A stretch of DNA of 63,654 nt, filler included, from Microthyrium microscopicum (lineage: Eukaryota), in assembly GCA_010405405.1 (NCBI GenBank). It is 11 parts of 5 records of this genome, joined end to end, with 100 filler letters (N's around TTAATTAATTAA, not from the genome) between each part and the next. Parts side by side here need not be neighbours in the genome. Positions count along the whole stretch, not along the records: positions 3,531 to 34,502 come from MU004243.1; 10 more parts are not named here. One strand, written 5' to 3'. The notes below the pieces were generated by a model. The model made no database searches. It saw only the letters and a list, made by a program, of their open reading frames with translations, and was not told where the DNA came from. Position 1 is the first letter of the stretch. Each line of letters starts with the position of its first letter. The position numbers and the translations under genes were made by a program. Shown in pieces: positions 14,090 to 34,072 of this stretch.

Positions 14090-15689
14090 AAAAAGACTAA
14101 TAGCTATAGCTTAATCTACTTTAGTAGTAATTGCTATATATAAGCTAGTATAGGATAAAGAAGTTACTATTAACTCTAGTCTCTTAGTATAGATTAAGAA
14201 GGACTAGCTAGTAAGAGGGTAGATAGTAGTTTCTTAACTTCTAGTCGTTTTAATTGCCTTTTATTAACTATAGTATTTACTTATAAGCTATTTCTTTAAG
14301 TATCTATAATATATCTAACGACTTAGACTTTCTATAAAGAGTAATAAGTATACTTAATACTATATAATTAGACTAGAATAAGCTAAGTATTAGAATAATA
14401 GTAGTATCTTAGAAGAAATAGTTACTTAGAGTTATATAAGTATAATATTAATAAAGTTATTTTAAAAGGTACGTATAATATTAATAAAGTTATCCTAAAA
14501 AGTATAATAGCTATAGTATTAACTTTATTATTACTAAGGAAGAAGCTATTTTTTAATACTCTACTTCTAGAAGTTCTACTAAGACTAATTTACTATTACT
14601 AATATAGCTTACCTATCTACTTAAATAAAGATACTTTTAATACTCTATTCTAGTATTATAAAGTATAAAGTATATTTTAACTATAGGCTCTTTATAAGTA
14701 ACTATAATTTAGAGATAAAGTAAGTTTTCTATAGAATTTAATCTTAGCCTAGTTTAGTAATAATTACTATATATAAACTAATATAAGATAAGGAAGTTAC
14801 TATTAATCCTAGTTACTTAGTATAAGTTAGAAAGGACTAGCTAGTAGTATAGAAGGCTACCTATTTACTCTTAATACTTTATTTTAGTATTATAAGGTAT
14901 AAAGTATAATTTAATTATAGGCTCTTATAAGTAACTATAATTTAGAGATAAAAAGGTTTTCTATAGAATTTAATTTTAGTTTAGTATTACTATAGTTACT
15001 ACGTCCTTTGTTTTTATAGCTACTATATTCTTTACTACTATATTTATCTTTTCTACTTTAAGTATAGTTATAAATAATATAATCTAGCTTACTATTTATA
15101 AGAATAGTTAGTATATTCTACTTAGTAATAATTACTATATATAAGCTAGTATAGAATAAGGAAGTTACTATTAATTCTAATATAAGTAGTAAGATAGAAT
15201 AAGTAATAAAATAAAACGTAAAATTAAGGTAAATAAAGCTATTTAGAATAATAAGAAACTTATTTATATTTTATAAGTTCTTTCTAATATCTTAATTAAT
15301 ATACTTACTTCTCTATTAGAGTTATTATTCTATTATATACTACTAATAAAGAACTTATCTTTATTTTATTATATCTAGTATTATTAGTAAGATATATATT
15401 AAGTATTAGTAAAGTTAACTATATAACTACTATATAGTAATAAATTCTTAGGCTATAGTTTTTAAGTACTTTTTAAACTATAGAGTATATATATATTTTA
15501 AGTACTATAAAATATAAAGTTAACTATATAATTACTATATAGTAATAAATTCTTAGGCTATAGTTTTTAGGTTTTTCTTTAATTAATATAATTAAACCTT
15601 TTTAATAATAATAAAGGTTTAGTAAAATTAACTCTAAAGCTACTATATAGTATAGAATTTTAGAGCTATACTTTATAAAGACTTCTTTA

Positions 15690-15780: not shown

Positions 15781-16850
15781 AATACTACTTAAATTCTAAA
15801 CTATCTATATTTATTTTATAATTAGTACTTATTATATAAACTAATATTCCTTAAGATATTAATTTTATATACTATCCTAATCTTATTTATACTATTATAT
15901 ATATATTAAATATCTTTATTTAAATATAATACTAGATAGTACTAAGGCTTATTTAAATTCTATTATATTTAATAGAATAAAACGTTATAATTATAGTAGA
16001 CTCTCTTTATAAATTATTAAGAAATTAGTAATCTTATTAAAGAGTAGTAGCTACTACTATATAAGCTTAAAACCTAGATATTATTATTCTAAGCTTTAAG
16101 AGTAGATAATAATATAGAATATAATTAAGGCTATTTAAGTATAATTAAAGTATACTTTTAGTAGTTATATTATAACTAATTCTAACTAAATTATAAGAAG
16201 TTATATTTAATTTTCTAACCTTTTTACTTATCCTACTACCTTAAGTCTAGATAGTATTAAGCAACTTCTAACTACTATTATTAAATATTGGATAGGCATA
16301 GGAGATTTAATATAGCCTATATACTTACTAAGAGAAGGGTATCTAAGATTTAAAAAGTATTAGGTAAATATCTTATATAATAAATAACATTTAAATTAAA
16401 ATACAAGTAAGCTAAAAGATATAGAATTACAAAACAAAATAAACTATTAATTTAGAATAGATAGAATTTAATAGAAGTAGGTATAAAAATCCTAAGCAAG
16501 ATAAGTAAATCTAATATTTAATAAGGTAAACATGTAGGGATTTATAAATTAGCTTAACTTGTTACTATAGCTTATAATATAAATGTTATAAGTATAACTA
16601 AATAATTAACATCTAGATTAGATTAGTATTTAATCTAATAGTAAGCCTAAAGGGGCATACCGCTCTTAATAATATTACCTACTACGTTTAACTTATAGTG
16701 TATTACTACTAACCTATACTACTTTAAGAACTTCTAAACTTCTAAACTTCTATTTTAGTAGTAGAAATTATCTTTATTTATAATAAGGTTATTAATATTT
16801 AGTAAAGTAGCACTTTTATATAATACTATAGCTTGCTTAGAAGGGTCTAG

Positions 16851-17722
16851 TAGGCTATACGTAGGTTTTAGTATAGTTATAGGGTTATATTTTAGGTAAA
16901 GATATTAGTTCGTAAGGAAGCTTACTAAATTTAGTAAAGGAATATTCTTTATAAGGACTACTTACTTATAATATCTCTCTTAAGGCGAGCTATATATAGA
17001 TTTTAATATAGTTATAAGTATATATTATAGATAAAGATATTAATTCGTAGGAAAGCTTACTAAATTTAGTATAGGAATATTCTTTAGGAGGACTATACTT
17101 ATAATATCTTTCCTTAAGTAGGCTATATATAGATTTTAGTATAGTTATAGGGATATATTATAGATAAAGATATTAATTCGTAGAAAAGCTTACTAGATTT
17201 AGTAAGAGAATATTCTCTAAGCTATACGTAGATTTTAGTATAGTTATAGGGATATATTGTAAGTAAAAATATTAGTTCGTAGGAAAGCTTACTAAGTAAG
17301 GAAATATTCTTTAAGCTATATATAGATTTTAGTATAGTTATAAGAACGTATTATAAGTAAAGATATTAGTTCGCAGAAAAGCTTACTAAGTAAGGGAATA
17401 TTCTTTAAGCTATATATAGATTTTAGTATAGTTATAGAGACGTATTATAGATAAAGATATTAGTTTATAGAGAAGCTTACTAAGTAAAGGAATATTCTTT
17501 AAGCTATATATAGATTTTAGTATAGTTATAGGAACGTATTATAAGTAAAGATATTAGTTCGTAGGGAAGTTTACTAAGTAAGGAAATATTCTTTAAGCTA
17601 TACATAGATTTTAGTATAGTTATAGAGATATATTATAGGCAAAGATATTAGTTTATAGGAAAGCTTACTAAATTTAGTAAGGAAATATTCTTTAGGAGGA
17701 CTATACTTATAATATCTTTCCT
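16851..17722 (+). repeat. Tandem array of 8 units (periods 135, 133, 99, 94, 94, 94, 94 bp)
   Basis: GCTATAYRTAGRTTTTARTATAGTTATA at 16854, 16989, 17122, 17221, 17315, 17409, 17503, 17597. Confidence 0.93.
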
Positions 17723-17879
17723 AAAATAGCTTTAATAAATAAAATAACACTACGCAAGAGTTTTAATTAGAGTAAATACTATAAGGCTTCTTCCTTAAAA
17801 GAATAAAAGTATAGTTAGGGATTTATAACTATAGTAAAGTTTAGTAAAGCTTAGTAGTAGTAGTTCCTTACTAAATTAC

Positions 17880-19110
17880 CTTATAAGTAAGCCTTAGCTA
17901 TAATGTCCCTTTAGTAGTATTATTCCTTTCGTATATATTATCCCTTTAGGTTAGGCGTTATATCTTAGTAGTAAGAAGGACGTAATTCCTTACTAAATAA
18001 TATTATTCTAGTACATTGTCCTTTTTGCTTACAACTACCTTACTAACTTCTAGTAAGTCTAAGTTGCTAAAGACTTCTATCCCTTTAGTAATAACGTCTT
18101 CTAATACTTTTCTACTACTAATTTATATCTCTAAAAGTAATATTTAGCTTTTAATATAATTGTACAAGCTTTAAGACGTTAATATAGAGTATTTTAGACT
18201 TCTCTATATATATTATATAAGGTAAAGTTACGTTTTAGTAGGCCTACATTCCTTAGCTTATATACTAAACTATTATATATACTATTTAGCTTACTAATTA
18301 GTAGAACTACTAATACTAAATACGTAAGTATTCCTTATAGATACTAATTATCTTATAAAACGTATTTATACTTAAATATCTAAGGGGCTAGCTTACTATT
18401 ATAGAACACTATACTATAGAAAATATAAAAAAAGTAAGAAAATAATATAAAATTAGTACTAAGATAGTTAGTACTACTATATAATAATTCTATAGAGCTA
18501 AATTATATATAAGTTTATCTTTCCTTATTAAATTAAGTATAACTAATACAATTAGGTAATAGAATTATAGTAGAGAAGGTTTAGTAAAGTAAAATTTTTT
18601 AGTATTAAGAGAGAGTAGGACTATAACTCTAATCTAGCTATTATATTTAAGTAGCGCTAAGCTAGTTTATATAGTAAGTAGTACGTATACCTAAGTCTTC
18701 TTAAGCTACTCTATAGCTATGTTAAGAACTAGGTAAGTAGAGAAATAATACTTTTTTAGCTCTTTTATAGAAGAAGGAAAAATTAATTAGCTAATTTAGC
18801 TAAATAATTATTATTTTACGTAACCTAAAATTATATAGAATTCATAGTAATTATTTAAGCTTATACTACATAGTAGTTTTATACTTACGTAGTCTTGCTA
18901 TACTAAATCTTAATAATTTAGTAGTAAGTATTACTTTAGAAATAACATTCTACTACTATAGAGTAAGTCTTCTTAGTTAAAAGGCTCTCTCTATTTCTTA
19001 ATCCTATATTCTCTAGTATAGTATACTTTTATAGCTATCTAATTTAAATATAAAGCTTACTATGCTATTCCTTTCTTAGGACTACTTAAGAAAATATATA
19101 TAGTAAAATA
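17880..19110 (-). pseudogene. Unknown cargo gene relic (spliced)
   Basis: Minus-strand frames with RIP-type stops only; GTAAGT...TTTTAG intron at ~18825-18888. Confidence 0.4.
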
Positions 19111-19164
19111 CTTTATAATAAAATGCTTAGTATTTTCCTTATAGCGTACGCTCTATAGACAACC

Positions 19165-19370
19165 TATTAGAATACGTTAAGGTATTTATCCTTTAATAGA
19201 GAGATACCTTATATAAGGAATTAAGATATTATTTATTAAAATACGTTAAGGTATCTATCCTTTATAAGAAGATGCCTTATATAAGAAATTAAGATATTAT
19301 TTATTAGAATACGTTAAAGTATCTATCCTTTATAAGGAGATACCTTACACGAAGGATTAAGATATTATTT
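19165..19370 (+). repeat. Three tandem 68-69-bp units
   Basis: AATACGTTAARGTATYTATCCTTTA at 19171, 19240, 19308. Confidence 0.92.
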
Positions 19371-19446
19371 TACTTATTATATATATTTATTTTAATAAAA
19401 CAAAAAGAATAACTTATAGTTACTTTTCAAAGTACTATTTAATAAT

Positions 19447-20880
19447 TACTTAGCTTTAAGGCGGCTAAAACTAGTAGAGATTACTAGTCTAACCTATCTC
19501 TATAACCTAGTCTAGTTTTCTAAATATATAGGTATTAACTAGTTAGGATAGCTATAAAGCCTTTCTATTACTAAGTAGTATTATTTAATACTACGTATTA
19601 CTTAGGTAAGTAGAGCTTTCTATAATAAAGCTTATTAAGTAGTATATTTATACTAATACTTAGTAAAATTGCTATAGAGGCATCTTAGTAGATCTTAATT
19701 AATATTAGGACTCTTTTAAGGCGATAATATTATAATAATCTTTATAACTATTTATACTTTAGCATTTATTATTAGAGATATCTTATTATACTTCATTAGT
19801 TACTTTTCTCTAATACGCTTTCTAGAGAAGATTAAAATAGTAAAGTATTTTTTATATTAATTTTTTTCTTTTAAAAAAAAGTCTTAACGTCTTTAACGTT
19901 AATACGTTTTATATTAATATATTACATTACGCTAAGTTAATTTATAGTAATATAGGTAGTTTTTAACTATTAATTAATTAGTATTTTAGTTATACTAAAT
20001 ACTATAACTACTTACTACCTAGAAATACTATATATAGAATATAAATAATATTACTACTCTTTATTAATTATAGCCTACTATAGACTACTATCTATAGTAG
20101 GCTTATTAATAATAACTAATTACCTCCTTATTTAGAGATTTTATCTTATAAATAGGCTTACTAGTTATAATAAAGTAATTCTAATATACCTTTTAAGTCT
20201 AATCTCGTTCTTTCTTTACCTATTTTTTTAACGATACTTTCCTAAGGCTATAGTTCTATATAACCTATTATACTTACGTAGTAATTATACTCTAAGCTAG
20301 GGTATAGTAATTAGGTTATTCTATATATTAGAGGAGCTTACGTTTTATAATATAGAGGAAAGTTAGTTAAAAACTAGTATATTATTTAAATACTATTTAA
20401 ACTAAATACTAGCAAGTTAGCAATTAGGAGAAAGGTTACCTAAAAACTAAAGCTAACTACTACAATTTTCTACTATAATCTTTAATTAAACTAGGCTATA
20501 TAAAGACTTTCTAATATTATTATAGCCTTATTATTATTATATATAGAGATAATTCTACGTAATACCTTATATCCTTAGGAAGTATAAGTACTATATTAAA
20601 AATAATATAAATAGTATAAGTAGGTTATAGGATTATTAACCTATATAAACTACAAGCTCTTAATTTTACTAAGAGTATTCCTATTTACAAAAAGTAATCC
20701 TACCTTAATTTAGTATTAATAGGTATATCTAATACGTTAGCCCTAACGCATAATAGAGGTCACACTCTTTACTTTAGTATAAAGTATATATTTTTTCTAA
20801 GAAGGTTAAGTTTATTAGGTAAAGACTCTAAGTAGCCTTATTAAGGTAATTTAACTATATTATTTATTAGCTAGTAGTTA
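19447..20880 (-). pseudogene. Unknown cargo gene relic(s)
   Basis: Protein-like minus-strand frames at ~19447-19920 and ~20440-20880, broken only by TAA/TAG; family not recognised. Confidence 0.3.
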
Positions 20881-22027
20881 TACTTTAGATATACCTAACT
20901 TTTCCTTAGATAGAAATCTTAATATATATTATTAATTTAAAGTAGTAAATATTATTATTAAAAGAATATAGACATAGAAGCCTCTAAAAAAATAGAGAAA
21001 CTTTATTACTTAGTATATAATTAGTAGTATATTATAAAAAAGGCAGAAATATGCTTTCTATTAATATATACTAGATAACGTAAATAAATATTAATAAATA
21101 TTATTATTAGTTTATTAATATATAGAAGCAAGCTAGTTAACTACTTCTAAATATTTTTATTTAAGTAGTATTCTCCTTAAGTTAAAAAGTACTAGTCCCT
21201 AGTAGATAAAAGTAGCAACTATAGTATATATCTAACTACTAGACAATTAAGTAGTAAAAGAGTAGCTTAGAATTAGCTAACATCTAAAAATATATTACTA
21301 GCTATAGTAGTTACTAACTAGTCGTTATACTTATTTATAAAGAAATATTATAAAATCTAAGTAGTTAAACTTTTAACTTATAGGGCTTATATATCTATCT
21401 ACTTTATTACTTAGTAATAATTAATAACTTTAAGAACAAACTAAGGGTTTATTTAGAATATCTAGGAGTATAGTATAGTAAGCCTATATTTTATATATTA
21501 TAACTAATAGAAATAAAAATACAAAAAGCGTATTATAAGCTATCCTTTGCTAAATTTAAGCTTATAATCTACGCTTTAAGTAAATTCTAAATTTACTCTA
21601 TTATCTACTAATCTACTTTAAGACAGTAGGAATTACTTTTAGCATCCCTATTTATTTTAGTAGTTATTTTTTAATATATTTACTTTTACTTATTATTACT
21701 ACGCCTAGGATAGCAAAGTAAGTATACTACTTTGCTTACTCTAGGTACTTATTATATATTTAGTTCTTTTATCTTTTTAGGAAGTTTTCTATCTATAGAG
21801 ATAGTATTATATTAATAGGTTAAAGCTAATTATAAACTTAGGTATATATTATAGGTATTAATTAGAGTATAGCTAATAGTACTTCTTTATAAAAAGATAG
21901 TTATATTTAACGTAATAGTATATTTCTACTAAAGACTATATTATATATATACTAATAGAGTACTAGATCCTTATCTACTATATTATTAAACAAGGCAATA
22001 CTTTACGTAGAAGAAATATATATTAGT

Positions 22028-22228
22028 AACAAGATAACTAATAAGTAAGAATATATCTACTTCCTTTTACTATTAAAAAGAATACTAACTTAATATTAGA
22101 TTAATAAAAATCTTAATTTAGGTAAGCATTAGCTTCTTTAGAAGCTATATTAGACCCTAATTATTCTCTTAGTTTACCTAGGAGGTAGTTAAGGTTTAAT
22201 ATTAAAAAATAAAGACTTAAAAATACTA
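22028..22228 (+). repeat. ~200-bp direct repeat, left copy, with internal hairpin 22147-22202
   Basis: Colinear with 23151-23350. Confidence 0.93.
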
Positions 22229-22420
22229 AGGAAAACTAAGAACTAAAGATATAAACTAAAAAAAAAATATAGACTTAAAGCAGACCTAGGTATATTATTA
22301 GCAAACTACCCCTTATAAGTAATAAGTTTATAAGTACTATTAATTTATAAGCAAATTAAGAGCAAGACTAACATATAGGTTAAATAAGAGCAGGACTAAT
22401 CTATAGCTTAGCTAGCTAAG

Positions 22421-23120
22421 GGAACTAAAATTAAGAAGGAATTACTTAAGTTAATATATAATAGCTTATAAAATAAGACCTTTACTAGACAAGCTAAGTT
22501 ACTTACGCTAATTAATAATAATTAGCATTAATACCTATAAAAGCAAAAAGAATATTAATCCTACTTATATTGCTTTTTACTATAAAGAGATAAAAAAGAG
22601 AGATAGCTACGTTTCTCTTTTTTATATATAATAATATAGTAACTCTTAATATAAGATTTAGATACGTTAAAACGAAATAGGATCTTTTAGTAATATAATA
22701 AATAATATTATAATAAGATTTTATTTCTAATATAATAAATAACGTTATAATAGAAATAGAATCTTATTATAATATTATTTATTATATTACTAAAAGATCC
22801 TATTTTATTTTAGCACATCTAAATCCTATATTAAGAGTTACTATATTATTATATATACTATCCCTTAATATTCTACTAAACCTTAATATCTAGCTTATTA
22901 AGGTTTAGTAAGACATATATAGTTAGGAACGTAGCTATTCCTCTTTTTTATTTCTTTATAGTAAGGAGCAATATAAGTAGAACTAATATTCTTTTTACTT
23001 TTATAGGTATTAATGCTAACTATTATTTATTAGCTTAAGTAACTTAGCTTATTTAGTAAAGGTCTAATTTTGTAAGCTATTATATATTAACTTAAGTAAT
23101 TCTTTCTTAATTTTAGTTTC
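22421..23120. repeat. 700-bp branched inverted repeat
   Basis: Outer arms 22421-22616 / 22925-23120; inner arms 22623-22736 / 22744-22857; side hairpin 22874-22888 / 22896-22910. Confidence 0.95.
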
Positions 23121-23150
23121 ATTATTCTATATTATAGTAGGAAAATTAAC

Positions 23151-23350
23151 AACGAGATAACTAATAAATAAGAGTGCATCCACTTCCTCTTAATATTAAA
23201 AAGAATACTAACTTAATATTAGACTAATAAAAATCCTAATTTAGGTAAGCATTAGCTCCTCTAGAGCTATATTAGACCCTAATTATTCTCTTAGTTTACC
23301 TAGGAGGCAGTTAGGGTCTAATATTAAAAGATAAAGACTTAAAAATACTA
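23151..23350 (+). repeat. ~200-bp direct repeat, right copy, with internal hairpin 23269-23324
   Basis: ATATTAGACCCTAA...TTAGGGTCTAATAT stem; colinear with 22028-22228. Confidence 0.93.
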
Positions 23351-23559
23351 GAGGAAGTATAATAGCTCTAGATTAATTAGGGAAATAGGCATAGTTAGTA
23401 ATACACCATTATATAAAGGAAAGGGCACGCTACTCTTAATAAGATTACGTACTACGTCTAACTTATAAGATAAAGCCTAAACGCTATAATATTACTAAGA
23501 CGAACTATATACTTTTAAGAACTTCCTATTTTACTATTTAGAATCTATAAATTATAAAT

Positions 23560-26500
23560 ATAGATTATTTTAAGGCAATCTTTAAGAAATATCTATAATA
23601 TAAAGTTATAGTCTATTCTAAATATAGCTATATAGTCCTACTAATATTATTTTCTAGATATATTAAAAAACACTATAAAAGCTTATTACTAACTACTAAG
23701 AAAGAGCTTATTTAGAAACTATAACTCGTTACGAGACTTATATAGAATATTAATAAAGTAGTATTTCTAACTAAGACTTATCTACTAATTCTAAAGATTT
23801 TAATTTATTATAATAGATAAAAATGCTTAGAGTATAGGTATATATATAAAGGCTAAGTAATTTATATTTAAGAGCATTATTAAATTAAGTATAGCTAGAT
23901 TAATCTAAATAAATAAGGTCGTTAGATAATTAAAATACAACGAAATATATTAAATTAGTATTATCTATAAAGAAATAATATTTATTATTAAAAGATCTTT
24001 ATACAGCTACCTTAGGACTAAATTATTAAAGTCTATTAACTACTAGACACCTAGTAAGCAGCTTAGCTACATCCTAAGTACAAAATAATTTAATATTAAG
24101 TATTAGCAACTTAGTAAAGAAAACAAGAAAACTAATATAAGGAATTAATTAATATAAAGAGCATAATAAGCTATCTAGAAGCTAATATATAGGTTAAGCA
24201 TATAGAATAGGCATAAATCCTATAATTATATAAATAAACGTAGCTAATTAGTTTTATACGACCTATTAACGTCTAAATAGAGGCTAAACTCGTAAAAATT
24301 AGTAGATTAGTCTAATAAGTTATCTAAAATACTATTAAGAATTTATAAAAAAATATTATTAGTTAAATAGTACTTAAAATAATTAATTAAAAGATTTTTA
24401 GTAGTAATAGCAAAGATAGAGCTAGAAAGCTAATACTAGTTTAATAATTAGCTAAAATAATTTAAAGATATAGTAATATCTAGTTATAGATTATTTAATT
24501 TGTTTAGCGCATATATAAGGAAGAATAGCTTAAGCTAACTATATCTAATAAAGAAGGCTAAAAAAAGTATTAAAACCTTACTAAAGAGAGGAAAGTAAGG
24601 CTAGACTTTAAGTTAACTAAAAGATAAGATACGCTACTTAATAATATCTAGGACTTATTAAGTATATTACTAAGTAGGGAAGTAAATAATAATTTAATAG
24701 ACGTAGAGTTTATAAATAAGAGTAAAGATAAGAGTATAAAAATAAAATTAAAAGAGGAAAGAAAAAAATTAGATAGTTTAGTTTTAGATTTATTTCTAGC
24801 TTTATTAGATTATAACATTAGTAATATTACACATAAGAGTATTTTTATTACTATAATTATAGTTATTAGTTTAGAAAAAGATAGTAGATAGAAAGATCTA
24901 TTATTATTTACTCTACGTTTATTAGCTATTATTACACTTAAGCATATATTTATATTATATAAAGCTATATACAAGAGAGTAGAAAGAATTACTAAGTTAT
25001 TAAAAAATAAAGAAATATATAAAAAAGATATAGAAGATATAGCTAAGTAGTATTATAAAATTATTAAGTAAATAGTAAAGAGGTTTATAGGATTAGTAGT
25101 AGTAAGGTATATTCTAGGTCTAATTAACTATGTCTTAAAGGTACGTATATATAGATTAAAGATTTAATATAATATAATAGATTAAGAAGTAATTAGCTAG
25201 ATAGATAATAAGTTATTATTTAGTAAGGTACGTTTCTACTTTAATTATGATTTAGAGAATATAATAGCTAAAGTACTAGTAGGTAAGGTATACTTTAGTA
25301 TATTATAACTTAGTTCTATAGTAGTAAACTTATTAGAAGAGACTAGAGAGCATCTCTATAAAGACTTATTATTATTTACAATAGTTATTAATAATAATAC
25401 TATTAAATAGTAGAAATAATATAAATTACTAATAATTTACTAGAAATATCTAGAAGATAATGTATCTAAAATATAGTAAGATTAGAATTTTTTAGTTAAT
25501 AGAAGAAATACTTAAAATAATATATTACTTAAAGAAGCTAGAGACTATTAGATTCTAGACAATTAAGTACTTACTAATTTAAAGATTAATACGAAGTTTT
25601 TACGCATAATACTAAATAAGAAGGAGATACTTAAAGTATATCTAGATTAAAAGCGGATGTTTAAGTACTAAGTAGTAATAGAGAAGATAAAAGAGAAGTT
25701 ATTAGTTCTAATCTATATAACAAGTAGCTAGCTAGCCTAAGGCATAGAAATCATTATAACAAAATTTAAAAATAGGCTAGCTAGTTTATATTAAGGAATT
25801 TTTATTAAGAATAGCTTAATAGTATTTATTACTAAATACTATAAAGGTTTTAATTTATTAGCAATCTTAAAGGTAGTTTATTAATATATACTATTAGAAG
25901 TTAGTAAATTGTTATATTATTATTTATAGCTTATAAAACCTTTTTAGGTATATATATTAGAAATAGCTAGAGTAGAGATAATAAAGAGTAAGTACTTATA
26001 GCTACTAGTAAGTAATAAAAAGGAGTATAATATAGATAAAGTAGATATTAATAATTAGGAAGAAAGGGAAGATAAAGATAGCTATATAGCTATAGAATAA
26101 GAGATATAAGGGTTAAATAATAAAATAGAAGACATAATAGTACTTAAAAAGGATAAAGATAACAATATAGTAAAGTAGGATAAAGAGAAGAGTATTTAAT
26201 TATAGTAAAAAAGTAAGGAATCTATAGAATTTATAAATAAAGAATAGTTATTAATTTAAGTTTAAAAAGTATTAATTTAAGAGATAGAGAAGCATCTAGG
26301 TATATAAATAATAATGTTAATATAGTAATATATATATATTATAATTATATATAAGTATATTAAAGATAGATTAGTAGAACGCATAATTATAAAGTAGGAA
26401 GACAATTTAGGAATAGAAGAAGTATTAAAAACTAGAGTAGAGATAAGTATAGGTAAATTAGATTTAATAGCTAATAAATAAGCTAGTTATAATACGCAAA

Positions 26501-28773
26501 CATTAGTAATAATATATATACGTAGCTATAGTAAAGCGTTTAGTATATTATATACTAGGTAAGAGGCATTTAGAAAAGTAAGTACTACTTAGTATAAGGT
26601 ATTACTATTACTATCTACGCTTAAAGAGGAATAGTAGTTAGAAAAAAGAGGAATACAAACCTTAGTAAAAGTAAGTATAGAGGATAGTATAATATTACGC
26701 TAGTCATTATTACGTTAAATTAATATAAATATATAGTTAGAAAAGTTAGCTAGTAAAGATATAAAGTTTTAGAGTATTTAAAAGCAAGGGATTAAAGTAG
26801 TTATATTACGAAAAAGTCCTATTATTATAATTATAAAAATGGAAGGAGGTAAAAGTTTATTATTTATATTACTAGCGTTATATAAAAGTAGAGGAGTTAA
26901 GGATATAACTATTATTATTATTCTATTTATTACTTTAGAGAAGAATATAATAACGAGATATAGAGATTTATAAATTAATACTATAGAGTAAAACCCTAAA
27001 GGTTAGCAAGATTAGGTAAATATTATTTTTATAATACTAAAGGCGGCTATAGGAAAGGCTTTTTTATAGTTTTTAACTAAGCAAAAGTAAATTAGTTAGT
27101 TAGATAGGATTATATTTAATAAGTATTATACAATATTAGATGCTATAGCGCTAAAGAAGTAGAGGGAAAAGATGCTAGATTTATAGCTATTAATTAAGTA
27201 AGAGATATAAATAGTTTACTTAATAGCGATATTGCTACTAAGGGATAAAGAAACGTTTAAATAAGTAATAGGTTTAATAAGTATTAATCTAAAAACTATT
27301 ATATAGCTATAAGAGTTAATAATACGTAAGAATATTACGTATAAGGTTTAAAAATAGAACTAAAAGCAAGAGAAAGAGGTAGAAGTTTTAAAGTTAGTAG
27401 TAAATAAGTTATTAGTTAAGTATAAAGAAGAGTAAGGGAAGATTATTATATATATTAGTAGGTCTATAGGAATAATTTAAAAGATAACAAATACGTTAGG
27501 CGTAGTGTATTATTATTAGACGTTATTAAAGGATATAAAGAAGAAGACATTAGAGTAGTTAATATAAAGAAGCGTATAGGTGTTTATTTATTTAAGTATA
27601 ATAGGGGTAGGTATTAATAGGCTACTAGTTTATATAGTTATATATCAAGGTAGGACGAGAATAATATAAGACTATATATAGAAAAGTAGATAAGTAGGAA
27701 GGTAAGAATAACTAAGTAAGGTAATTATATTATATTAGGTTATAAAGAATGTTTAAAGAAAGGAGCAAGATAGGTTAGATAAGTAGGCTAAGAAAAATAT
27801 AGTAAAGTTAATCTAAACTAAGCACTATTAGTAACGTATAATTAACTTAGTACTTAATAGTAATTAGACTAGATAATGATATTAAGAAGATAAAGAGAGA
27901 TATAATAATTACGACGCTAAATACTAAGAACGTAGAAGAGAGGTAGCTTATTTAAGTAAAAATAGATAAGTATAATAAAGATATTAGTAAAACTTATTTA
28001 TTTAATCTATTACGATAGCAAAGCAAATACAACCCTATTAGTTTCTAGAAGAATAAGATTAAATTACAAATAATATATAATAAGAGTTTATATAAATTCT
28101 AAAAAAAGATTATAACGACTTTAAATACGCTACATTATTACAAAGAGCCTAAGTATAAGAAGAGTAATAAAGAGATAATAAAATTACTAAGGAGAAGTAA
28201 GGAATAGTAGATATATTTTAAAAATAGAAAAATATTAGCTATTAGTTTTGTATAGTAGTTAGAGGTTATAAGGAAGGAAAAAGAATACTATTACAAGAGT
28301 ATTAAGGCTATATATTAAATAGCTACTAAAGACTAGACGCTTAATTAATTAAGAAGAGGGTAGCTAAGGCTAAAAAAGCTTATAAGGACAAAAGAAATAC
28401 GTAAGCTATATAGACATTACTTATATATTATTTTATATATAGTACGCTATAAGAACTTTATAATAGCTAGACTTTAATAAGATATAGTTATTTTAAAAAG
28501 AAATCTAGCTAAAAGAATATATAGACCTATTAATATAGTAGGCTTATTATTAGAGTTATTATAGTATTATTATATATTTATTAAGACGAGACTTCTACTT
28601 AGATAATAGAAGAAATATAAAAGGAAGGAATTATAAACGTAAAAGCTATAAAGTAGATATAGTTAGGAAGTAGAAGAATATTATATAAGATTAAGTATAA
28701 TTAAATAGTAGAACTTATAATAAAGTTTAAAGGATATATAATTACGTAGTAAGATATATATAAAGCTAAATAG
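23560..28773 (+). pseudogene. RIP-inactivated telomere-linked RecQ-like helicase (DUF3505/OrsD-like N-terminus + tyrosine-recombinase-like region + SF2 helicase + Zn-binding C-terminus)
   Basis: One frame at every point checked. Raw > de-RIP readings: VIVYSKYSYIV > VIVCSKCGYAV (~23605); YITSS*LA*GIE > HMTSGQPARGTE (25714-25749); MEGGKSLLF > TGGGKSLLF Walker A (26839); FNKYY > FDECH (27115-27129); LIAILL > LTATLP (~27220); *KSR*VGR > QESGRAGR (27679-27702); CRR...C...CDNC (~27826-27912). Start and stop inferred. Confidence 0.93.
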
Positions 28774-28946
28774 TAATCTAAGAAGCACTAGGCTAAAGGT
28801 TATAGTAAACGCATATATTATACTTTAATTAGATAACAATAAAATACTATATATATTAAATAATAATACAAGTATAGATTAGCTTATCTATATAGATAGT
28901 ATCTAAATATAGTTTAGTATATAATACTATATATATAATAGTTTTA

Positions 28947-29898
28947 ATGCAGACATTTAGCTAAGGCAAAATTTAATAGATAAGCTTAAAAAAAACTATA
29001 TAAAATGTAAGAAGTTCCTACCTACAAATTATTAAACTTAATAACAAAAAGTATTATTTATATTAAGGATAATATTACTAAGTTAGTAACTACTACTATA
29101 TAGTATTATAAAGAAATTATAATAGTTATAAGCAGAAATTAATAAGGCAATATTAGAAGGACTTTATAAGAGTTAACTATAGTAAGAACGAGGCTTTATT
29201 ATAGACTCTAAAGATAAAACTAATAAAGAATCTAGTAATCTAGATAGATTTATAGTATCTAATAATAAAGAAAAATATAATAAAGAGCAAAACGAAGAAT
29301 AAAAGTATAAGTAAGAGTAAGGAGAAGAGAATAGTAAGAAATATAATATAAGGTACGAGGAGAATAATAAGAATAACTCCTATTTACTAAGTATTATAGA
29401 TAATAGTACTAAGAATACTACAAAATACTAGCAGCATAATTAACTATAATAGTAGAAATATATTATTTTTTTATTATTACTATCCTAATACGAAAGCAAG
29501 TAAAAAGTAAGTACTAATAACATCCTAGAAAATAAGACTAAATTAGCTAATTTATAATATTCTATACGAAATAGGAATTACGTAGAAGAAGACTAAATAG
29601 TAATAGAAGTTATAGTATTTTAAATAAAACAAATAAACGAAGCTTAAATATAAGAATAATATATTATATAGCTTAAAGAGCAATTAGAACAAGTTCGTAT
29701 AAATAAGAAATATAAGTTTTATATAATAAGAAAAGATATTATAAATAGAGATAAGTATAAATAGATAGACTATATATAAGAATAAGCTATTAAAGAAGGT
29801 ATTTAAAAGGGAATTAATTTTAGGCTTTAGGAAGGAATATAACTATTAATTTAAGCAAAGAATATAAATAGTTATAATATATATTATATACCTTATAG
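28947..29898 (+). pseudogene. Unknown acidic / coiled-coil protein relic
   Basis: Frame from ~29130 de-RIPs to GFIVDSEDETDEESGDLDGFIVSDDEEEYDEEQDEE..., followed by a Q/E/K-rich helical region; 5' end uncertain. Confidence 0.55.
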
Positions 29899-30210
29899 TA
29901 TATATAATTATTAAATTTTAGTTAATAGTATTAACTAGCAAAAATCTAAGAATAATAGCTATATTTATAAAGAATAGATTTTAAGAATAATTATTATAGC
30001 TTTAATAATAAACTTAGAGAATATTTAAGACTAAGTATATATATAAGTTAAGAGAAGTAGATTTATAAATAGTAAAGTTTTTATATAGTTTTCGTAACAT
30101 GTAATAATTAGTAATATAGATTCTAATAATTATATTTAAATATTTATATATATAGTTAGTAAAGATACTTAAAATTAAAAAAGAAAAAGTAAAATATCTA
30201 GTAGTAATAG

Positions 30211-31093
30211 AGTGTACTAGCTTCTATTAAATGCAATAGCTACTACTAAGTACGATAGCTACTACTAAGTATAATAGCTCCTATTAAATGCGATAGCTAC
30301 TACTAAGTGCAATAGCTACTACTAAGTATAATAGCTACTACTAAGTATAATAGCTACTACTAAGTATAATAGCTCCTACTAAGTGTAATAGCTCCTACTA
30401 AGTACGCTAGCTTTCATTAAATACGCTAGCTTCTATTATACTTACTAGCTCCTATTAAGTATAATAGCTTCTATTAAGTATAATAGCTCCTATTAAGTAC
30501 GCTAGCTCCTATTAAGTACGCTAACTCCTATTAAGTATAATAGCTCCTATTAAGTATACTAGCTTCTATTAAGTACGCTAGCTTCTATTAAGTGTGCTAG
30601 CTTCCATTAAGTGTGCTAGCTCCTATTAAATATAATGACTACTACTAAGTATAATAGCTACTACTAAGTGTAATAGCTCCTACTAAGTATAATAGCTCTT
30701 ACTAAGTATAATAGCTTCCATTAAATATAATAGCTCCTATTAAATGCGCTAGCTTCCATTATACTTACTAGCTTCCATTAAGTATAATAGCTTCCATTAA
30801 GTGCGCTAGCTCCTATTAAGTACGCTAGCTTCTATTAAATATGCTAGCTTCTATTACACTTACTAGCTTCTATTAAGTATAATAGCTCCTATTAAGTACG
30901 CTAGCTCCTATTAAGTACGTTAGCTCCTATTAAGTATATTAGCTTCTATTAAGTGCGCTAGCTCCTATTAAGTACACTAGCTCCTATTAAGTACGCTAGC
31001 TCCTACTAAGTACAATAGCTCCTATTAAATACGATAGCTCCCATTATACTTGCTAGCTCCTATTAAGTATAATAGCTCCCATTAAGTACGCTA
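30211..31093 (+). repeat. 19-bp minisatellite, ~46 copies (GCTAGCTCCTATTAAGTAC / AATAGCTCCTATTAAGTAT)
   Basis: Units at 30501, 30520, 30539, etc. Confidence 0.97.
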
Positions 31094-31313
31094 AATCCAT
31101 TCTAAGGATCCAGTATAGAGAGGACTAAAAATTAGCTATTAATAACTTTATCTATTACGAAAAAAGGACTAGCAAGAATAAGGTAGAGATCGTTTGTAAT
31201 TTAAAGTTTATAAGCTAGTTTAGGGTCTATATATTAGGAGAAATAGTAATAGTACTTGTAAGGATAGTCGTAGTAGTAGTAATTAATATTAAAGTAGAAG
31301 TATAGATTCTTAC

Positions 31314-32992
31314 TAATAATAGGAGGAGGATTAAGAGATTAAATAGCCTTTATTATTAATTTTTTTATTACGCCAATTATCTAATGTCTTTATAATAGAC
31401 TTTATAAATTAGCTCTACACCTTAGGTAGAATAGCGTTTCTAATCTACTTTATCTTTTAAGTCTTGCCTTTTATAAAAATATAATTAGGAGAAAACTCTT
31501 AATAGTAGCTAATTTCCTAGGAACTAAGAGCTTATTAGCTATCCTAATAACTAGCCCTATTAGCTTTAGTAGTAATGTAGCTAAGTTAAGTTTTTATTTT
31601 TAAGTTATAAGAAGTCCTAGGTACATTATACTAATTAAGCATAGTATAATAATAGAAAGCATTATAAGGAATTCTTCTATAGACGTCCTAGACTATTATA
31701 TATAGAAGAAGACTAGAGCCTAATAGACTATAAGTAGAGGAAAGAAATACTAGCATAGGAACCTAATATTAGTTAGTAATAGTAATAAGTCGTTTTTATA
31801 AGCTTATAAGACTATAGTTAGTAAATTAATATACTTACTATTATATATTATAGCCTTAGTTAAGTATATTAGAAATAATTATCTAAAAGAAGTATTTAGC
31901 TTTCTCTATACTCTTAAGGCTAAAAGTATTTTCTTAAGTATAGTAAAGAGGTTATATAGTTTTTAAATAATGCTTTATAGCTAAGATAAGTACGGAATTA
32001 ATTTTATTATTTTACTAGCCTTAAGTTATTATAGCAACTATATTTATAAGTAAGAAGGCCTAGTATAGCTAAGAAGTATATATTATATTAACTTTATAAT
32101 AGTAGATAATTTTAAGCGCTTTAGATTAGTCTATATAAAAGATAAGAAAGCTATTATAGTTAGCTCTTAAGCTCTCTACTACTAACTAGTCTTTATTAAA
32201 CGCCTATATAACTTAAGCGCCTACTATTTTTACACCTATAATATTACTACTAGTACTAGCGTATCTAGATCTATACGTTATTTCTTTTTCTTAATATTAA
32301 ATAGCCTTAGAACGATTAAAAATTTTGTATCTTTCTAATAGAAGACAATTAGAGTAAGTAGAATGTAATTTAGAGAAATAAATATAATAAATCTTTTCTC
32401 CTACTAGCTTTTTCTTCTTCTAAATATTTTCCTAAACTATAAAGTAAATAGTACGGTAGAAAAGTAGGCTATTACGCTTAAGGAACTCCTTATTAAAGAG
32501 TTTTTTTATTATAATACTCTTAGGATTATAGGTAGGCTAAGCATTATAGGATTTAATAACTTCTTACTTTTATAGCTTATTGCTATTAATTAAAACTTAT
32601 AAGATAGGAACATTATTATATTACTACTCTTTTTTATACTTAGTATCTTAGTCTTAGATATTTCGTTTTAATATTACTTCATTAATATATATATAGCTAA
32701 CTTTAAAAAGATAAACGGAATAGCAAAATAATTATCTATAGAGGAATACGCCCTTCTTCTTACGAATTATTTAGATAACCTTTAGTATATCGCCTTACTT
32801 ATAGTCTTATAGTTAGAGCTCTAAAGTATTATTTAAGGTAATAGTCTATTCTTAAGAAGTATAAAAATCTAGAAACGACTTAGTAAACTACCTAGCTTAA
32901 GGTACTAATTAAGCTAAGGTTATTGTAAGCTAAACCTACATTGTCTTAATAATCTCTAAGTCTAAATTACTATTACTACTATTATCTATTAT
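31314..32992 (-). pseudogene. RIP-inactivated Masc1/RID-like C5 DNA cytosine methyltransferase
   Basis: One continuous intronless frame with motifs in order (raw > de-RIP): I TYRSRYASTSS > TYGSG(C/Y)AGAGG (32278-32246); II AFNKD > AFDKD; IV YTS*LY*AF > HASWPCQAF (PC at 32068-32063); VI *ENTF (EN at 31933-31928); VIII NYSL..*KRL > DYGL..RKRL; FLSSTYSLLGSSLL > FPSSTHGPSGSGLL; IX S*EI..*EF; X K*IRNAILP > KQIGNA(I/V)PP (~31450-31424). The C-terminal tail may run on toward 31100. Confidence 0.9.
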
Positions 32993-33166
32993 AACTACGT
33001 TATATAAGAATTAGTTAAAATTAATTTCTTTATTTAAAATATCTAATAGAATAATACTTAGGCTTCTATAAGTCGTCTTATTTATAGTAAGAGCTTATAA
33101 AAACAATCTATTAATTTTAGTAATTTTATTAGGTTTAGGCGAACTAGTTAAGTTAATAAAAACTCG

Positions 33167-34072
33167 TTAAATATAATAGCTACTACTAAGTGCAATAGCT
33201 ACTACTAAGTATAATAGCTACTACTAAGTGTAATAGCTCCTACTAAGTGTAATAGCTCCTACTAAGTACGCTAGCTTCTATTAAATATACTAGCTTCTAT
33301 TATACTTACTAGCTCTTATTAAGTATAATAGCTCCTATTAAGTATAATAGCTTCTATTAAGTACGCTAGCTCCTATTAAGTACGCTAGCTTCTATTAAGT
33401 ACGCTAGCTCCTATTAAATGTACTAGCTTCTATTAAATATACTAGCTTTTATTAAGTGTAATAGCTTCTATTAAGTGTAATAGCTCCTACTAAGTATGCT
33501 AGCTCCTACTAAGTGTGCTAGCTCTTATTAAATACAATAGCTTCTATTAAGTATAATAGCTCCTATTAAATATAATAGCTTCTATTAAATGTAATAGCTT
33601 TTATTAAGTACGATAGCTCTTATTAAGTATAATAGCTCCTACTAAGTACAATAGCTTCTATTAAATATAATAGCTACTACTAAGTATAATGGCTTCTATT
33701 AAGTACGATAGCTTCTATTAAGTATAATAGCTCCTATTAAGTGCACTAGCTCCTATTAAGTGCGCTAGCTCCTATTAAGTACGCTAGCTCTTATTAAGTA
33801 CGCTAGCTCCTATTAAGTACAATAGCTACTATTAAATATAATAGCTACTACTAAGTATAATAGCTTCTATTAAGTATAATAGCTCCTATTAAGTATAATA
33901 GCTCCTATTAAATATAATAGCTCCTATTAAATGTAATAGCTTTTATTAAATACGCTAGCTTCTATTATACTTACTAGCTCCTATTAAGTATAATAGCTCC
34001 TATTAAGTGCGCTAGCTTCTATTAAGTATACTAGCTTCTATTAAATGTAATAGCTTCTATTAAATACGCTAG
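33167..34072 (+). repeat. 19-bp minisatellite, ~47 copies, same unit and orientation as 30211-31093
   Basis: Directly visible; shares the order of variant units with the first array. Confidence 0.97.

Follow-up and report, generated by a model that had tools for sequence, protein, structure and literature searches.

A probable RIP-inactivated TLH subtelomere-type unit in Microthyrium microscopicum, with a predicted tyrosine-recombinase fold in its TLH domain

TLH genes are represented by Magnaporthe oryzae TLH1, Fusarium oxysporum TLH, examples from Ustilago maydis and Schizosaccharomyces pombe tlh1/2. Saccharomyces cerevisiae Y' elements are subtelomeric repeats encoding the Y'-Help1 helicase, for which we know of no recombinase domain, and Starships are giant transposons of fungi whose mobility depends on a DUF3435 tyrosine recombinase, the 'captain'. 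The published TLH architecture, as far as the cited text sets it out, consists of C2H2 motifs, the TLH domain and RecQ (bioRxiv 10.1101/2024.02.27.582403), and in the cited parts of the TLH literature the domain is described as having no known function (bioRxiv 10.1101/2024.02.27.582403; PMC1635262). For M. oryzae, the cited text describes blocks of tandem repeats flanking TLH genes, 'helicase-associated repeats' upstream of them and chromosome ends that can capture internal sequence (PMC1635262).

The window analysed here is a stretch of 63,654 nucleotides, filler included, from M. microscopicum (GCA_010405405.1), in which unplaced scaffolds are strung together with linkers. The block under study, 16260..34072, is contained within one gap-free piece (no N in 8722-34502) of an AT-rich scaffold; because this scaffold stops at 34502, the block's right 'end' lies merely 430 bp from the scaffold end. 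A preliminary description had assigned to one gap-free block a TLH-type gene, a convergent C5-methyltransferase, a branched palindrome of about 700 bp inside direct repeats and four tandem arrays, and all of these were recovered. The several unknown ORFs that it also listed were not recovered: every stop-to-stop frame in 15000-35500 is shorter than 100 aa, and a Pfam search of all six frames of 16000-22300 gave zero matches. The features are as follows, with the strand in brackets where one applies.

16852-17694: compound tandem array, 94/133-bp units, ~6 copies, upstream of the helicase (TRF, self-BLAST)
19165-19370: tandem array, 68 bp x3 (TRF, self-BLAST)
22022-22233 (+): 213-bp direct repeat, left copy (self-BLAST)
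22417-23124: nested ('branched') palindrome, 708 bp, between the 213-bp direct repeats
22417-22616 and 22925-23124: outer arms of the palindrome, 200 nt, 91% complementary, ~200-bp stem
22623-22735 and 22745-22857: inner arms of the palindrome, 113 nt, 93% complementary, hairpin 22623-22857
~22858-22920: small third hairpin, ~25 bp, inside the outer stem
23145-23356 (+): 213-bp direct repeat, right copy (self-BLAST)
24466-27935 (+): TLH-type pseudogene, 1,157 codons, single frame, many stops
~24750-26600 (+): N-terminal helical region and predicted tyrosine-recombinase-fold 'TLH domain' of the pseudogene
25738 (R, now TAA), 25843 (K, AAA) and 26326 (R, TAA) (+): putative recombinase catalytic positions of the pseudogene
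26488 (H, TAT) and 26515 (Y, TAT) (+): the remaining putative catalytic positions
~26750-27750 (+): RecQ helicase core of the pseudogene
26848-26856 (+): Walker A G-K-S of the RecQ core
27118-27129 (+): DExH of the RecQ core, now N-K-x-Y
to ~27935 (+): RecQ zinc-binding cysteines, 3' part of the pseudogene
30218-31090 (+): 19-bp minisatellite, consensus TAGCTCCTATTAAGTATAA, ~46 units, downstream of the helicase (TRF)
31091-33172 (-): RID/Masc1-like C5-cytosine methyltransferase relic, convergent with the helicase, 70 stops in 692 codons
31093-31091 (-): stop codon TAG of the relic
31447-31424 (-): motif X of the relic, Q-I-G-N-A-V-P-P, now *IRNAILP
31519 (-): motif IX of the relic
31798-31790 (-): motif VIII of the relic
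31933-31925 (-): motif VI of the relic, E-N-T
32074-32051 (-): motif IV of the relic, S-W-P-C-Q-A-F-S, now S*LY*AFL
32263 (-): motif I of the relic
33167-34063 (+): 19-bp minisatellite, second block, ~47 units, abutting the relic at its truncated 5' side (TRF)

The RIP signature is extreme over the whole window (GC ~0.18; TpA/ApT 1.5-1.8; (CpA+TpG)/(ApC+GpT) 0.00-0.22), the last of these indices being 0.09-0.22 within the block and 0.00-0.02 in the sequence to its left. Between the paired repeat copies (palindrome arms and direct repeats) there are 39 transitions versus 6 transversions in total, showing that RIP struck after duplication; the helicase gene and the methyltransferase fragment were hit as well, and nothing in the block is functional today. 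Self-BLAST found no second copy of the block in the window, where it also has no terminal repeats. A position of this copy at a chromosome end is a candidate only, the scaffold being unplaced and the window containing no telomere repeat. Between 71 and 77% of the sampled words of 22000-31999 occurred in four runs of one sample, which is possibly the source and so gives no independent support.

With stops read as X, the helicase frame matched 879 proteins at E<=1e-3 in a phmmer search of 1.84 billion representatives. Residues 3-1114 of the top match, P0001 (E 3.2e-123), map by tblastn to 24466-27864 in a single frame over 3.4 kb, and hmmalign extends this frame to ~27935. At 125 conserved columns, defined as those kept by 90% or more of 13 relatives, 52 codons of the window copy are identical, 67 are reachable by C>T/G>A changes and 6 are incompatible, giving 119/125 identical or transition-compatible codons versus 22/125 for a random-codon control. 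Judged from its codons, the helicase gene was in frame when transition mutations destroyed it. The N-terminal C2H2/OrsD part had no match in the window copy.

A domain-only model of the TLH domain (pLDDT 76.6) was compared with 48,161 chains. Its best match was Xer (4a8e_A; Z 11.3, rmsd 3.4, 155 residues aligned), the best 31 of the 48,161 chains were tyrosine recombinases, topoisomerases IB, Ndc10, QRICH1 or protelomerase, and the first unrelated row appeared at Z 3.8; the whole 601-residue model matched 4a8e_A at Z 10.7. Foldseek E-values for the domain were above 1e-3 (best 0.052, XerH), hhalign against six E. coli recombinases was weak (E 0.11), and NDC10_II was the sole named neighbour in a language-model search (score 0.84), which we treat as a lead only. 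The boxes GQPxRxxEL, YHKG, WRH and QAGHS...Y are kept among the relatives, and R-K-R-H-Y is present in 49 of the 52 that cover the domain; in the H-x-x-R box, the leading His is not conserved among them. The TLH domain is thus modelled as a tyrosine-recombinase fold, with the predicted catalytic residues complete in the intact family. The recombinase-helicase fusion of the preliminary description is real, but it is not undescribed, its architecture being that of the known TLH family.

The relatives examined come from metagenome contigs and are distant, none exceeding 39% identity to P0001. Among 11 scanned with Pfam, 8 had both DEAD and Helicase_C and 4 had OrsD, a pair of C2H2 motifs, which also occurred in 7 further long ORFs; this make-up equals the published TLH architecture, and family membership was set by architecture and context. 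Of 32 loci of relatives, 24 have tandem arrays with a period of at least 10, in many cases immediately behind the ORF. The contig of L016 terminates in (TTAGGG)n 1.7 kb past the ORF, and of 38 relatives just one visibly adjoins a telomere. Seven relatives are stop-riddled (L010, L011, L012, L022, L023, L025, L028), tandem copies or extra fragments occur at L014, L013 and L025, and the contigs of many relatives stop near the ORF. Co-occurrence of helicase, methyltransferase and palindrome elsewhere, to which the preliminary description had looked, was not seen at the loci examined: Pfam DNA_methylase was absent from 44 flanking ORFs at 18 loci, a Dcm-based HMM found no methyltransferase in 3,767 ORFs at 38 loci (a weak test, run without a positive control), and no inverted repeat with arms of at least 100 nt was found at 19 loci. 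Over these loci, the outcome speaks against a single unit. A lineage-specific composite unit in the source genome may still be compatible with these negative results from such distant relatives.

In the methyltransferase relic, motifs I, IV, IX and X, at 32263, 32068, 31519 and 31441, form an ordered one-frame chain that is the only one in the window and was found in 0 of 60 Markov resamples. PF00145 is its sole Pfam match at E<=10 (E 0.014, below the gathering cut-off), and its single database match is P0281, an annotated intact Dothideomycete gene (815 aa; sole domain PF00145; E 2.1e-63), with no BAH or RFTS. Residues 123-815 of P0281 align colinearly to 33166-31094 without a change of frame and with 2 gap columns (E 6e-154). 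The alignment holds 691 codons, of which 331 are identical, 302 transition-compatible and 58 incompatible; the random control for compatibility was 122/691. On this codon comparison the methyltransferase, too, was in frame when transition mutations hit, and the pre-RIP gene would have been up to ~92% identical to P0281; it departs from P0281 chiefly in the target-recognition region and so did not arise simply as a recent copy of that very gene. The preliminary description had both genes keeping their frames and destroyed by transitions only; the frames were indeed single, and C>T/G>A changes make up almost all of the differences from intact relatives.

By its motifs (motif VI E-N-T, ~91 codons between VIII and IX) and the lone PF00145 of its intact homologue, the methyltransferase is RID-like, as had been proposed, but its ownership by an element is another matter. 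The relic covers P0281 codons ~121-815, the 5' ~120 codons and any promoter being absent. Its ends coincide with array ends, the 2.08-kb fragment exactly filling the gap between two halves of the 19-bp array that have identical unit and orientation, and the final unit of 30218-31090 reaches the methyltransferase stop codon. Because the 5' end is missing and the fit between the array halves is exact, a captured gene fragment fits better than an element's own gene. The intact P0281 gene may itself have a TLH gene as neighbour or be flanked by arrays of this kind.

The 213-bp direct repeats are 90.6% identical (17 transitions, 1 transversion, 2 gap columns), and 22022-23356 amounts to ~1.19 copies of a 1,123-bp unit holding the palindrome. 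As DNA, the palindrome folds at -242.5 kcal/mol versus -66.9 for shuffles (z = -36), and the ratio of transitions to transversions between its arms is 15:4 (outer) and 7:1 (inner).

The locus, on its unplaced scaffold, is likely to be a TLH unit of subtelomere type that took up part of a host gene and was inactivated by RIP, an assessment that applies to the identity of the locus and not to how such units spread. The unit would consist of one very large intronless gene with arrays upstream (94/133-bp, 68-bp) and downstream (19-bp); the product of the gene presumably combined a helical N-terminal region with a tyrosine-recombinase-fold domain, complete in its catalytic residues, and a RecQ helicase that bears zinc-binding cysteines. 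The nested palindrome lies 1.3 kb upstream of the gene, within a partial tandem duplication of 1.1 kb, and a piece of a host RID/Masc1-type gene was most likely captured or duplicated, antisense, into the downstream 19-bp array. RIP acted after that, on helicase gene, methyltransferase fragment, palindrome arms and direct repeats alike. On our best reading the block is not a new composite mobile element. That it is instead one self-mobilising element, combining an integrase/replication helicase, a palindromic origin and its own RID-like methyltransferase manipulating RIP or heterochromatin, is very unlikely, even though no gap separates its parts, which share one scaffold and show somewhat weaker RIP decay than the sequence on their left, both genes still kept their frames when mutated, the pre-RIP methyltransferase departed from P0281 mainly in the target-recognition region and the nested topology of the palindrome is that of hairpin replication origins. 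The truncated methyltransferase has the 19-bp array on both sides and lacks its upstream sequence, the searches of the relatives' loci for methyltransferases and large palindromes were negative, and the window holds neither terminal repeats nor a second copy. An error of assembly, such as a hairpin chimera of long reads or a wrong join within AT-rich repeats, is extremely improbable as the source of the palindrome or of the entire layout. In its favour, this scaffold is unplaced and part of a concatenated pseudo-molecule, and missed adapters in long reads can create palindromes. Those would be near-perfect, whereas complementarity between the arms is just 91-93%, with mostly transitions separating them, as for real DNA RIP-mutated after duplication.

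How intact TLH units spread is a separate question. We tentatively infer activity and mobility, intact units spreading between chromosome ends by Crypton-like, recombinase-catalysed site-specific exchange with the helicase assisting, a mechanism that falls a little short of probable. TLH units could also be host subtelomeric genes instead of mobile elements, with the recombinase fold serving telomere or subtelomere maintenance (e.g. recombination-based rescue after telomerase failure); their copies would then travel from one chromosome end to another solely through ectopic recombination or break-induced replication, the window copy having landed in RIP-targeted repeats. This is plausible, if rather doubtful. 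Recombination duplicates subtelomeres and no element ends were found in the window. The cited text presents TLH genes as candidates for telomere maintenance, with expression in S. pombe confined to telomere crisis (PMC1635262), and Crypton-type recombinase folds have been domesticated before, the cited survey naming Ndc10 and DUF3504 genes (PMC3212892). However, R-K-R-H-Y is kept across diverse relatives, unlike in domesticated cases; the stop-riddled relatives, tandem or extra copies and contigs ending near the ORF are what a selfish repeat shows; and M. oryzae ends that lack TLH genes propagate normally in the cited account (PMC1635262).

Like Masc1/RID, the relic has all C5-methyltransferase motifs in canonical order, Thr instead of ENV's third residue in motif VI, a short target-recognition region (91 codons versus ~80 aa reported for the family) and an intact homologue free of any domain besides PF00145; unlike them, its triad is ENT where EQT or EET is reported, and the copy is 5'-truncated, stop-riddled and lodged in a minisatellite. 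The likeness to Y' elements, by description, lies in a helicase-encoding repeat unit at chromosome ends with short flanking repeats. With Starships the locus shares a fungal repeat unit, a tyrosine-recombinase-fold protein and neighbouring 'cargo-like' DNA; it differs in having no DUF3435 match in 11 relatives scanned, a recombinase fused to a helicase, and neither captain-first architecture nor terminal repeats found. As in Cryptons, a tyrosine-recombinase catalytic domain is predicted in a eukaryotic repeat without terminal inverted repeats (Kojima and Jurka 2011, PMC3212892), and the TLH-domain model matches Crypton-derived Ndc10 (Z 5.0) and QRICH1 (Z 4.7), but a helicase is present here, whereas Cryptons are described without one in the cited text (PMC3212892), neither GCR1_C nor a Pfam Phage_integrase match was found in the 11 relatives scanned, and the H-x-x-R histidine is not conserved. 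The closest likeness is to TLH: a very large gene in which a conserved domain, several hundred residues long, immediately precedes the RecQ core, two N-terminal C2H2 motifs (Pfam OrsD) in relatives, tandem-repeat blocks on both sides (that at 16852-17694 comparable in position to the M. oryzae 'helicase-associated repeats'; PMC1635262), and a multi-copy family with frequent mutated copies and one member ending in TTAGGG repeats. The window copy departs from TLH in being RIP-dead, with no C2H2 part found and its telomere position only a candidate, and from TLH descriptions in that the family's domain models as a tyrosine-recombinase fold with its predicted catalytic residues intact. The locus is ordinary, yet it indicates that the TLH helicase family carries an integrase-like domain.

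No open frame of at least 100 aa lies within 15000-35500, and pseudogene frames were therefore read through with an X at each stop. Compared in this form with 1.84 billion representative proteins, the + strand frame from 24541 gave 879 matches at E<=1e-3, the best of them a protein of 1,385 aa (P0001, E 3.2e-123) that aligned to query positions 53-1137 in one stretch. By tblastn, residues 3-1114 of P0001 fell on 24466-27864 in a single frame, and hmmalign carried this frame as far as about 27935, taking in the zinc-binding cysteines of RecQ. The resulting helicase pseudogene lies within a block (16260-34072) that contains the following features.

16852-17694, tandem array upstream of the pseudogene
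19165-19370, second tandem array upstream of the pseudogene
22022-22233 and 23145-23356, direct repeats
22417-23124, palindrome
24466-27935, + strand, helicase pseudogene
31091-33172, - strand, methyltransferase relic within a 19-bp array

The preliminary description held that the reading frame had been kept and the gene destroyed by transitions alone, and for the helicase a codon comparison bears this out. At 125 columns that are at least 90% conserved among 13 relatives, the window codon encodes the same residue in 52 cases, is reachable by C>T or G>A in 67 and is incompatible in only 6, whereas random codons were compatible at just 22 of the 125. The codons for the helicase core (G-K-S, D-E-x-H, Q and R) are all identical or transition-derived. 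Pfam found nothing in the read-through frames of the helicase region even at E<=10. Frames damaged by RIP almost escape family HMMs, and the zero matches, DUF3435 included, in the other window frames scanned are thus weak evidence. A word-index search with the helicase pseudoprotein placed 0 of 8,000 scored candidates at E<=1e-20, and intact copies in the same species may still exist. Two further approaches gave little. A home-made RIP-aware Smith-Waterman comparison was abandoned for lack of power with single distant sequences (positive control of bacterial RecQ against the window, 29.2; best on the opposite strand, 27.0; elsewhere, 20-21 per strand), and with E. coli Dcm it did no better than shuffled queries. 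A codon-usage model trained on the pseudogene tracked mostly purine richness and did not help in the search for other genes.

RIP is recognized by C>T and G>A transitions in duplicated DNA, an excess of TpA and a depletion of CpA and TpG. The 63.7-kb window is AT-rich throughout (GC about 0.18), with TpA/ApT of 1.5-1.8 and (CpA+TpG)/(ApC+GpT) of 0.00-0.22, and the RIP footprint, an extreme one, is seen in these composition indices, in the codon-level compatibility of both genes and in the transition excess between repeat copies. Ten 100-bp linkers, each consisting of 44 N, TTAATTAATTAA and 44 N (a six-frame stop linker), connect short AT-rich scaffolds at 3431-3530, 34503-34602, 37107-37206 and seven further sites; this makes the window a pseudo-molecule, concatenated from unplaced pieces that are not physical neighbours where they adjoin. 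The block, which matches nothing but itself within the window, sits on the unplaced scaffold 3531-34502 (single 10-N gap at 8712-8721). Its right edge is 430 bp short of the scaffold end, and the sequence past 34502 is no true neighbour. No (TTAGGG)n run of at least three units occurs in the window; a telomere may lie past the scaffold end, 430 bp after the 19-bp array. Four sequencing runs match window sequence, all from one sample and one study, and no RNA run is among the runs listed as matching. Other repeats were also observed.

4525-5019 and 7286-7616; 5312-5501 and 7909-8125, a 170-bp array, then 26-bp and 21-bp arrays, seen twice
40717-41415, 63/189-bp tandem array of 11 copies, strongly pyrimidine-rich on the + strand
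47405-48095, 49043-50203 and 51546-52274, 194/389-bp satellite, 89-92% matches

The 170/26/21-bp set occurs twice on the scaffold of the block with an offset of some 2.7 kb, which suggests that a unit of about that length has been duplicated. The array at 40717-41415 produced a spurious 'coding' signal in the codon-usage model. The satellite recurs in pieces 47228-48095, 49043-51535 and 51546-53802 with only N runs between them, and the linker at 47128-47227 precedes it.

Members of the helicase family are encoded by 511 metagenome stretches, and the relatives indicate which kind of gene the pseudogene once was. With Pfam, DEAD and Helicase_C were both present in 8 of 11 relatives scanned, OrsD (PF12013, a C2H2 motif pair) was N-terminal in 4 of the 11 and was found in seven further long ORFs at metagenome loci, and the roughly 600 residues between OrsD and the helicase matched no Pfam family. 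This arrangement matches the order published for telomere-linked RecQ helicases (TLH), namely C2H2 motifs, then a 'TLH domain' whose function is described as unknown, placed ahead of the helicase, and finally RecQ motifs (bioRxiv 10.1101/2024.02.27.582403). In the window the RecQ core is represented by the Walker A and DExH codons and the aligned zinc-binding cysteines (DEAD and Helicase_C being matched in the relatives), and the region directly upstream aligns to five relatives (P0001, P0003, P0004, P0005 and P0009); the two alignments of the relatives' middle region used below, A2 and A3, include this TLH-domain region. From its position and architecture we infer that it is the same domain as that of the named TLH proteins. 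The source names of the relatives are only 'superfamily II DNA helicase RecQ' or 'hypothetical protein' and never TLH. No C2H2 or OrsD motif was detected in the window upstream of 24466, where RIP damage may mask it; P0001, the closest relative, is also without OrsD.

The surroundings agree with this assignment. TLH genes of M. oryzae are reported to be flanked by tandem-repeat blocks termed 'helicase-associated repeats' (PMC1635262), and the pseudogene has arrays on both sides, two upstream and the 19-bp array downstream. Among the relatives, 24 of 32 loci contain tandem arrays of period at least 10, often immediately past the ORF. The telomere-adjacent position of the TLH family is not seen in the window, whereas one relative's locus (L016) does end in (TTAGGG)n, 1.7 kb beyond the ORF, the sole case among 38 loci.

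One metagenome contig (L014) carries two full-length TLH-type ORFs in tandem.

L014, 2671-8007, full-length TLH-type ORF
L014, 10041-14825, full-length TLH-type ORF

Sequences shared after each ORF (7971-8013 with 14890-14932 at 95%; 9316-9556 with 15096-15339 at 78%) could mark unit ends. At seven loci (L010, L011, L012, L022, L023, L025 and L028) the recombinase region holds 3-14 in-frame stops and GC is lowered to 0.38-0.51, and RIP-like decay of the helicase family seems common. A reverse-transcriptase ORF of 1,202 aa (RVT_1, E 3.9e-28) lies convergent to the TLH-type ORF at L019:8213-11818 (- strand); retroelements are known near fungal telomeres, and the arrangement recalls them.

The preliminary description had proposed a recombinase-helicase fusion as part of a new mobile element. 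Alignment of the relatives' middle region revealed boxes of the kind that characterize tyrosine recombinases (GQPxRxxEL, YHKG...K.IHR, WRHIAIAI.R and QAGHS...AG..Y). When 601 residues were modelled with AlphaFold (pLDDT 75.9), the best match was an archaeal Xer recombinase (VIA-align, Z 10.7), followed by ten rows of only tyrosine recombinases or topoisomerases IB; Foldseek returned nothing at E<=1e-3 for this model. For a model of the catalytic part (317 residues, pLDDT 76.6), ranks 1-31 of 48,161 chains were all Xer, Cre, phage or transposon integrases, Flp, topoisomerase IB, Ndc10, QRICH1 or protelomerase. The best of them was 4a8e_A (Z 11.3; rmsd 3.4 over 155 aligned residues), and unrelated chains began at Z 3.8. 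With Foldseek the top 19 were again all recombinases, yet the best E was 0.052. The domain is thus predicted, from these models, to have the catalytic fold of tyrosine recombinases and topoisomerases IB.

Tyrosine recombinases cleave DNA and exchange strands through a 3'-phosphotyrosine intermediate. At the five putative catalytic positions R, K, R, H and Y are kept in 49 of the 52 relatives that cover the domain, and the window has TAA, AAA, TAA, TAT and TAT there, all unchanged or transition-derived. Among the relatives, conservation does not extend to the first His of H-x-x-R. Roles were provisionally assigned to these residues by motif order and by hhalign, in which A2 weakly matched the Arg and Lys boxes of XerD, the profile similarity to six E. 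coli recombinases being weak (E 0.11) and confined to those boxes. In a language-model atlas, 29 of the 30 clusters nearest to the recombinase-fold domain of another relative (L002:2436-3386) were unnamed fungal 'hypothetical proteins', and the sole named neighbour, NDC10_II (score 0.84), is a lead only; NDC10_II has been reported as derived from CryptonF recombinases (PMC3212892). The fusion is therefore real as far as the fold models and the R-K-R-H-Y positions go, and it is a property of the known TLH family. A search of the open literature, domain databases and subscription journals not included, found no publication tying a tyrosine recombinase to telomere-linked helicases, and a record of it may exist elsewhere.

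The second gene of the block is a C5-methyltransferase relic. Motifs I, IV, IX and X follow one another in a single - strand frame (32263, 32068, 31519 and 31441), a chain that is unique in the window and appeared in none of 60 Markov resamples. The spacings are canonical, with 66 codons from motif I to the Cys of IV, 44 from there to the Glu of VI, 45 to the first Arg of VIII, 91 from the last Arg of VIII to IX and 26 from IX to X. The sole Pfam match of the frame was PF00145 (E 0.014, short of the cut-off), and a word-index search returned a single protein, P0281 (E 2.1e-63), a Dothideomycete protein of 815 aa named SAM-dependent methyltransferase in its source and matching PF00145 only (E 1.2e-30). 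PDB phmmer yielded chance-level rows only (antibody chains, E 0.85; DNMT1, E 2.8). Residues 123-815 of P0281 align to 33166-31094 within a single frame (2 gap columns), and the 691 aligned codons comprise 331 identical, 302 transition-compatible and 58 incompatible (control, 122/691); before RIP, identity of the gene to P0281 therefore reached at most about 92%. Sites not explicable by RIP are concentrated in the target-recognition region (P0281 588-695, window 31771-31456) and are absent from residues 171-523. The source was a diverged allele, paralogue or orthologue rather than P0281 itself.

Two candidates were discarded. A low-stop - strand frame at 27600-29400 had no Pfam or PDB match as a methyltransferase and is probably the pyrimidine-rich antisense of the helicase gene; a 'GPPCQxFS' at about 31761 lies in another frame and was dropped once the true frame emerged. 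A word-index search with E. coli Dcm retrieved close Dcm orthologues only and was of little use.

According to PMC6709928, Masc1/RID enzymes have EQT or EET rather than ENV at motif VI and a recognition region of about 80 aa. The relic reads GAA AAT ACT at motif VI and P0281 has E-N-T, so that the third residue, Thr, is as in Masc1/RID and the middle Asn as in canonical enzymes. The target-recognition region is short (the 91 codons between VIII and IX), P0281, with PF00145 as its only domain, has no BAH or RFTS regulatory domains, and C5-methyltransferase motifs I to X are present. The label 'RID-like' given to the gene is consequently fair, except that the middle position of motif VI differs from EQT and EET. 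The relic extends from about codon 121 of P0281 to the stop codon, and both of its ends adjoin blocks, alike in orientation, of one 19-bp repeat. It is a promoter-less fragment inside the array downstream of the helicase gene. For such a fragment to undergo RIP needs only its being a duplicate of the host gene, or its location among repeats. It is a minor oddity that RIP has destroyed a copy of a RID-type gene, a member of the family to which the mutator itself belongs.

The branched palindrome between direct repeats is likewise real, as judged from the complementarity of its arms and a predicted DNA folding energy far beyond that of shuffles (z = -36). In the 708-bp structure, outer arms of ~200 bp pair at 91% complementarity and enclose two hairpins, one with arms of 113 bp (93%) and one that is small. 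It sits in sequence amounting to 1.19 copies of a 1,123-bp unit, as marked out by the direct repeats. Differences between arms and between direct repeats amount to 39 transitions and 6 transversions; the duplications therefore predate RIP and are no sequencing artefact. Short perfect palindromes were also seen downstream of two TLH-type genes, at L007:11413-11444 (32 nt, 18 nt past the ORF end) and L021:5169-5208 (40 nt, about 650 nt past the match end), too few for a pattern.

What did not hold up was the proposal that helicase, methyltransferase and palindrome formed one self-mobilizing unit. No DNA_methylase match was found in 44 flanking ORFs at 18 relatives' loci, nor with a Dcm-based HMM, a weak test run without a positive control, in 3,767 ORFs at 38 loci, and inverted repeats with arms of at least 100 nt were absent from 19 relatives' loci (the longest arms measured 85 nt and 63 nt). 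As the relatives compared are distant and on short contigs, a lineage-specific composite element of all three parts may exist; against this, the methyltransferase copy is truncated and bounded by arrays, which argues against its having been the element's own working gene. We conclude that the locus, on an unplaced scaffold, is a subtelomere-type TLH unit inactivated by RIP, and that it carries, besides the unexplained palindrome, a captured fragment of a RID-type gene. The unit is new but dead and of a kind already known, assigned to the TLH family by architecture and context as opposed to direct protein comparison.

The locus itself is a graveyard, and its value is in what it points to about the TLH family. 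The presence of TLH genes at the ends of fungal chromosomes has been on record since the late 1990s, and two reports (bioRxiv 10.1101/2024.02.27.582403; PMC1635262) still describe their function as unknown. A recombinase fold with conserved catalytic residues beside a helicase provides a concrete, testable mechanism for TLH spread or for action at chromosome ends, and if the TLH domain is an active recombinase, TLH units would be more than subtelomeric genes. In the intact family the recombinase would drive a Crypton-like spread between chromosome ends, with the helicase assisting; we favour this tentatively, at a little short of even chances, given the catalytic residues kept across the relatives. 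The main rival is that ordinary subtelomeric recombination spreads TLH units and the domain serves telomere maintenance; no element ends were recognized in the window or at the relatives' loci, and the same fold and residues could act at chromosome ends. Protelomerases share the fold, and the substrates of the enzyme might therefore even include palindromes or hairpins like the nested one described above. The further step from recombinase-driven spread to a joint reading is rather doubtful: here the TLH domain would be a catalytically intact tyrosine recombinase, TLH units would be widespread, unrecognized, Crypton-like selfish elements of recombinase and RecQ that colonize chromosome ends, and the window copy would be one of these, killed by RIP after acquiring a RID fragment.

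Starships have a DUF3435 'captain' at the 5' end of the element, and DUF3435 had no match in the 11 relatives scanned. Crypton DNA transposons lie between short repeats of the recombination site and are polymorphic for insertion and excision; for GCR1_C, the DNA-binding domain of the CryptonF type, Pfam also gave no match in the 11. Domesticated Crypton-derived proteins are described as having lost the catalytic residues (PMC3212892), whereas the helicase relatives keep them.
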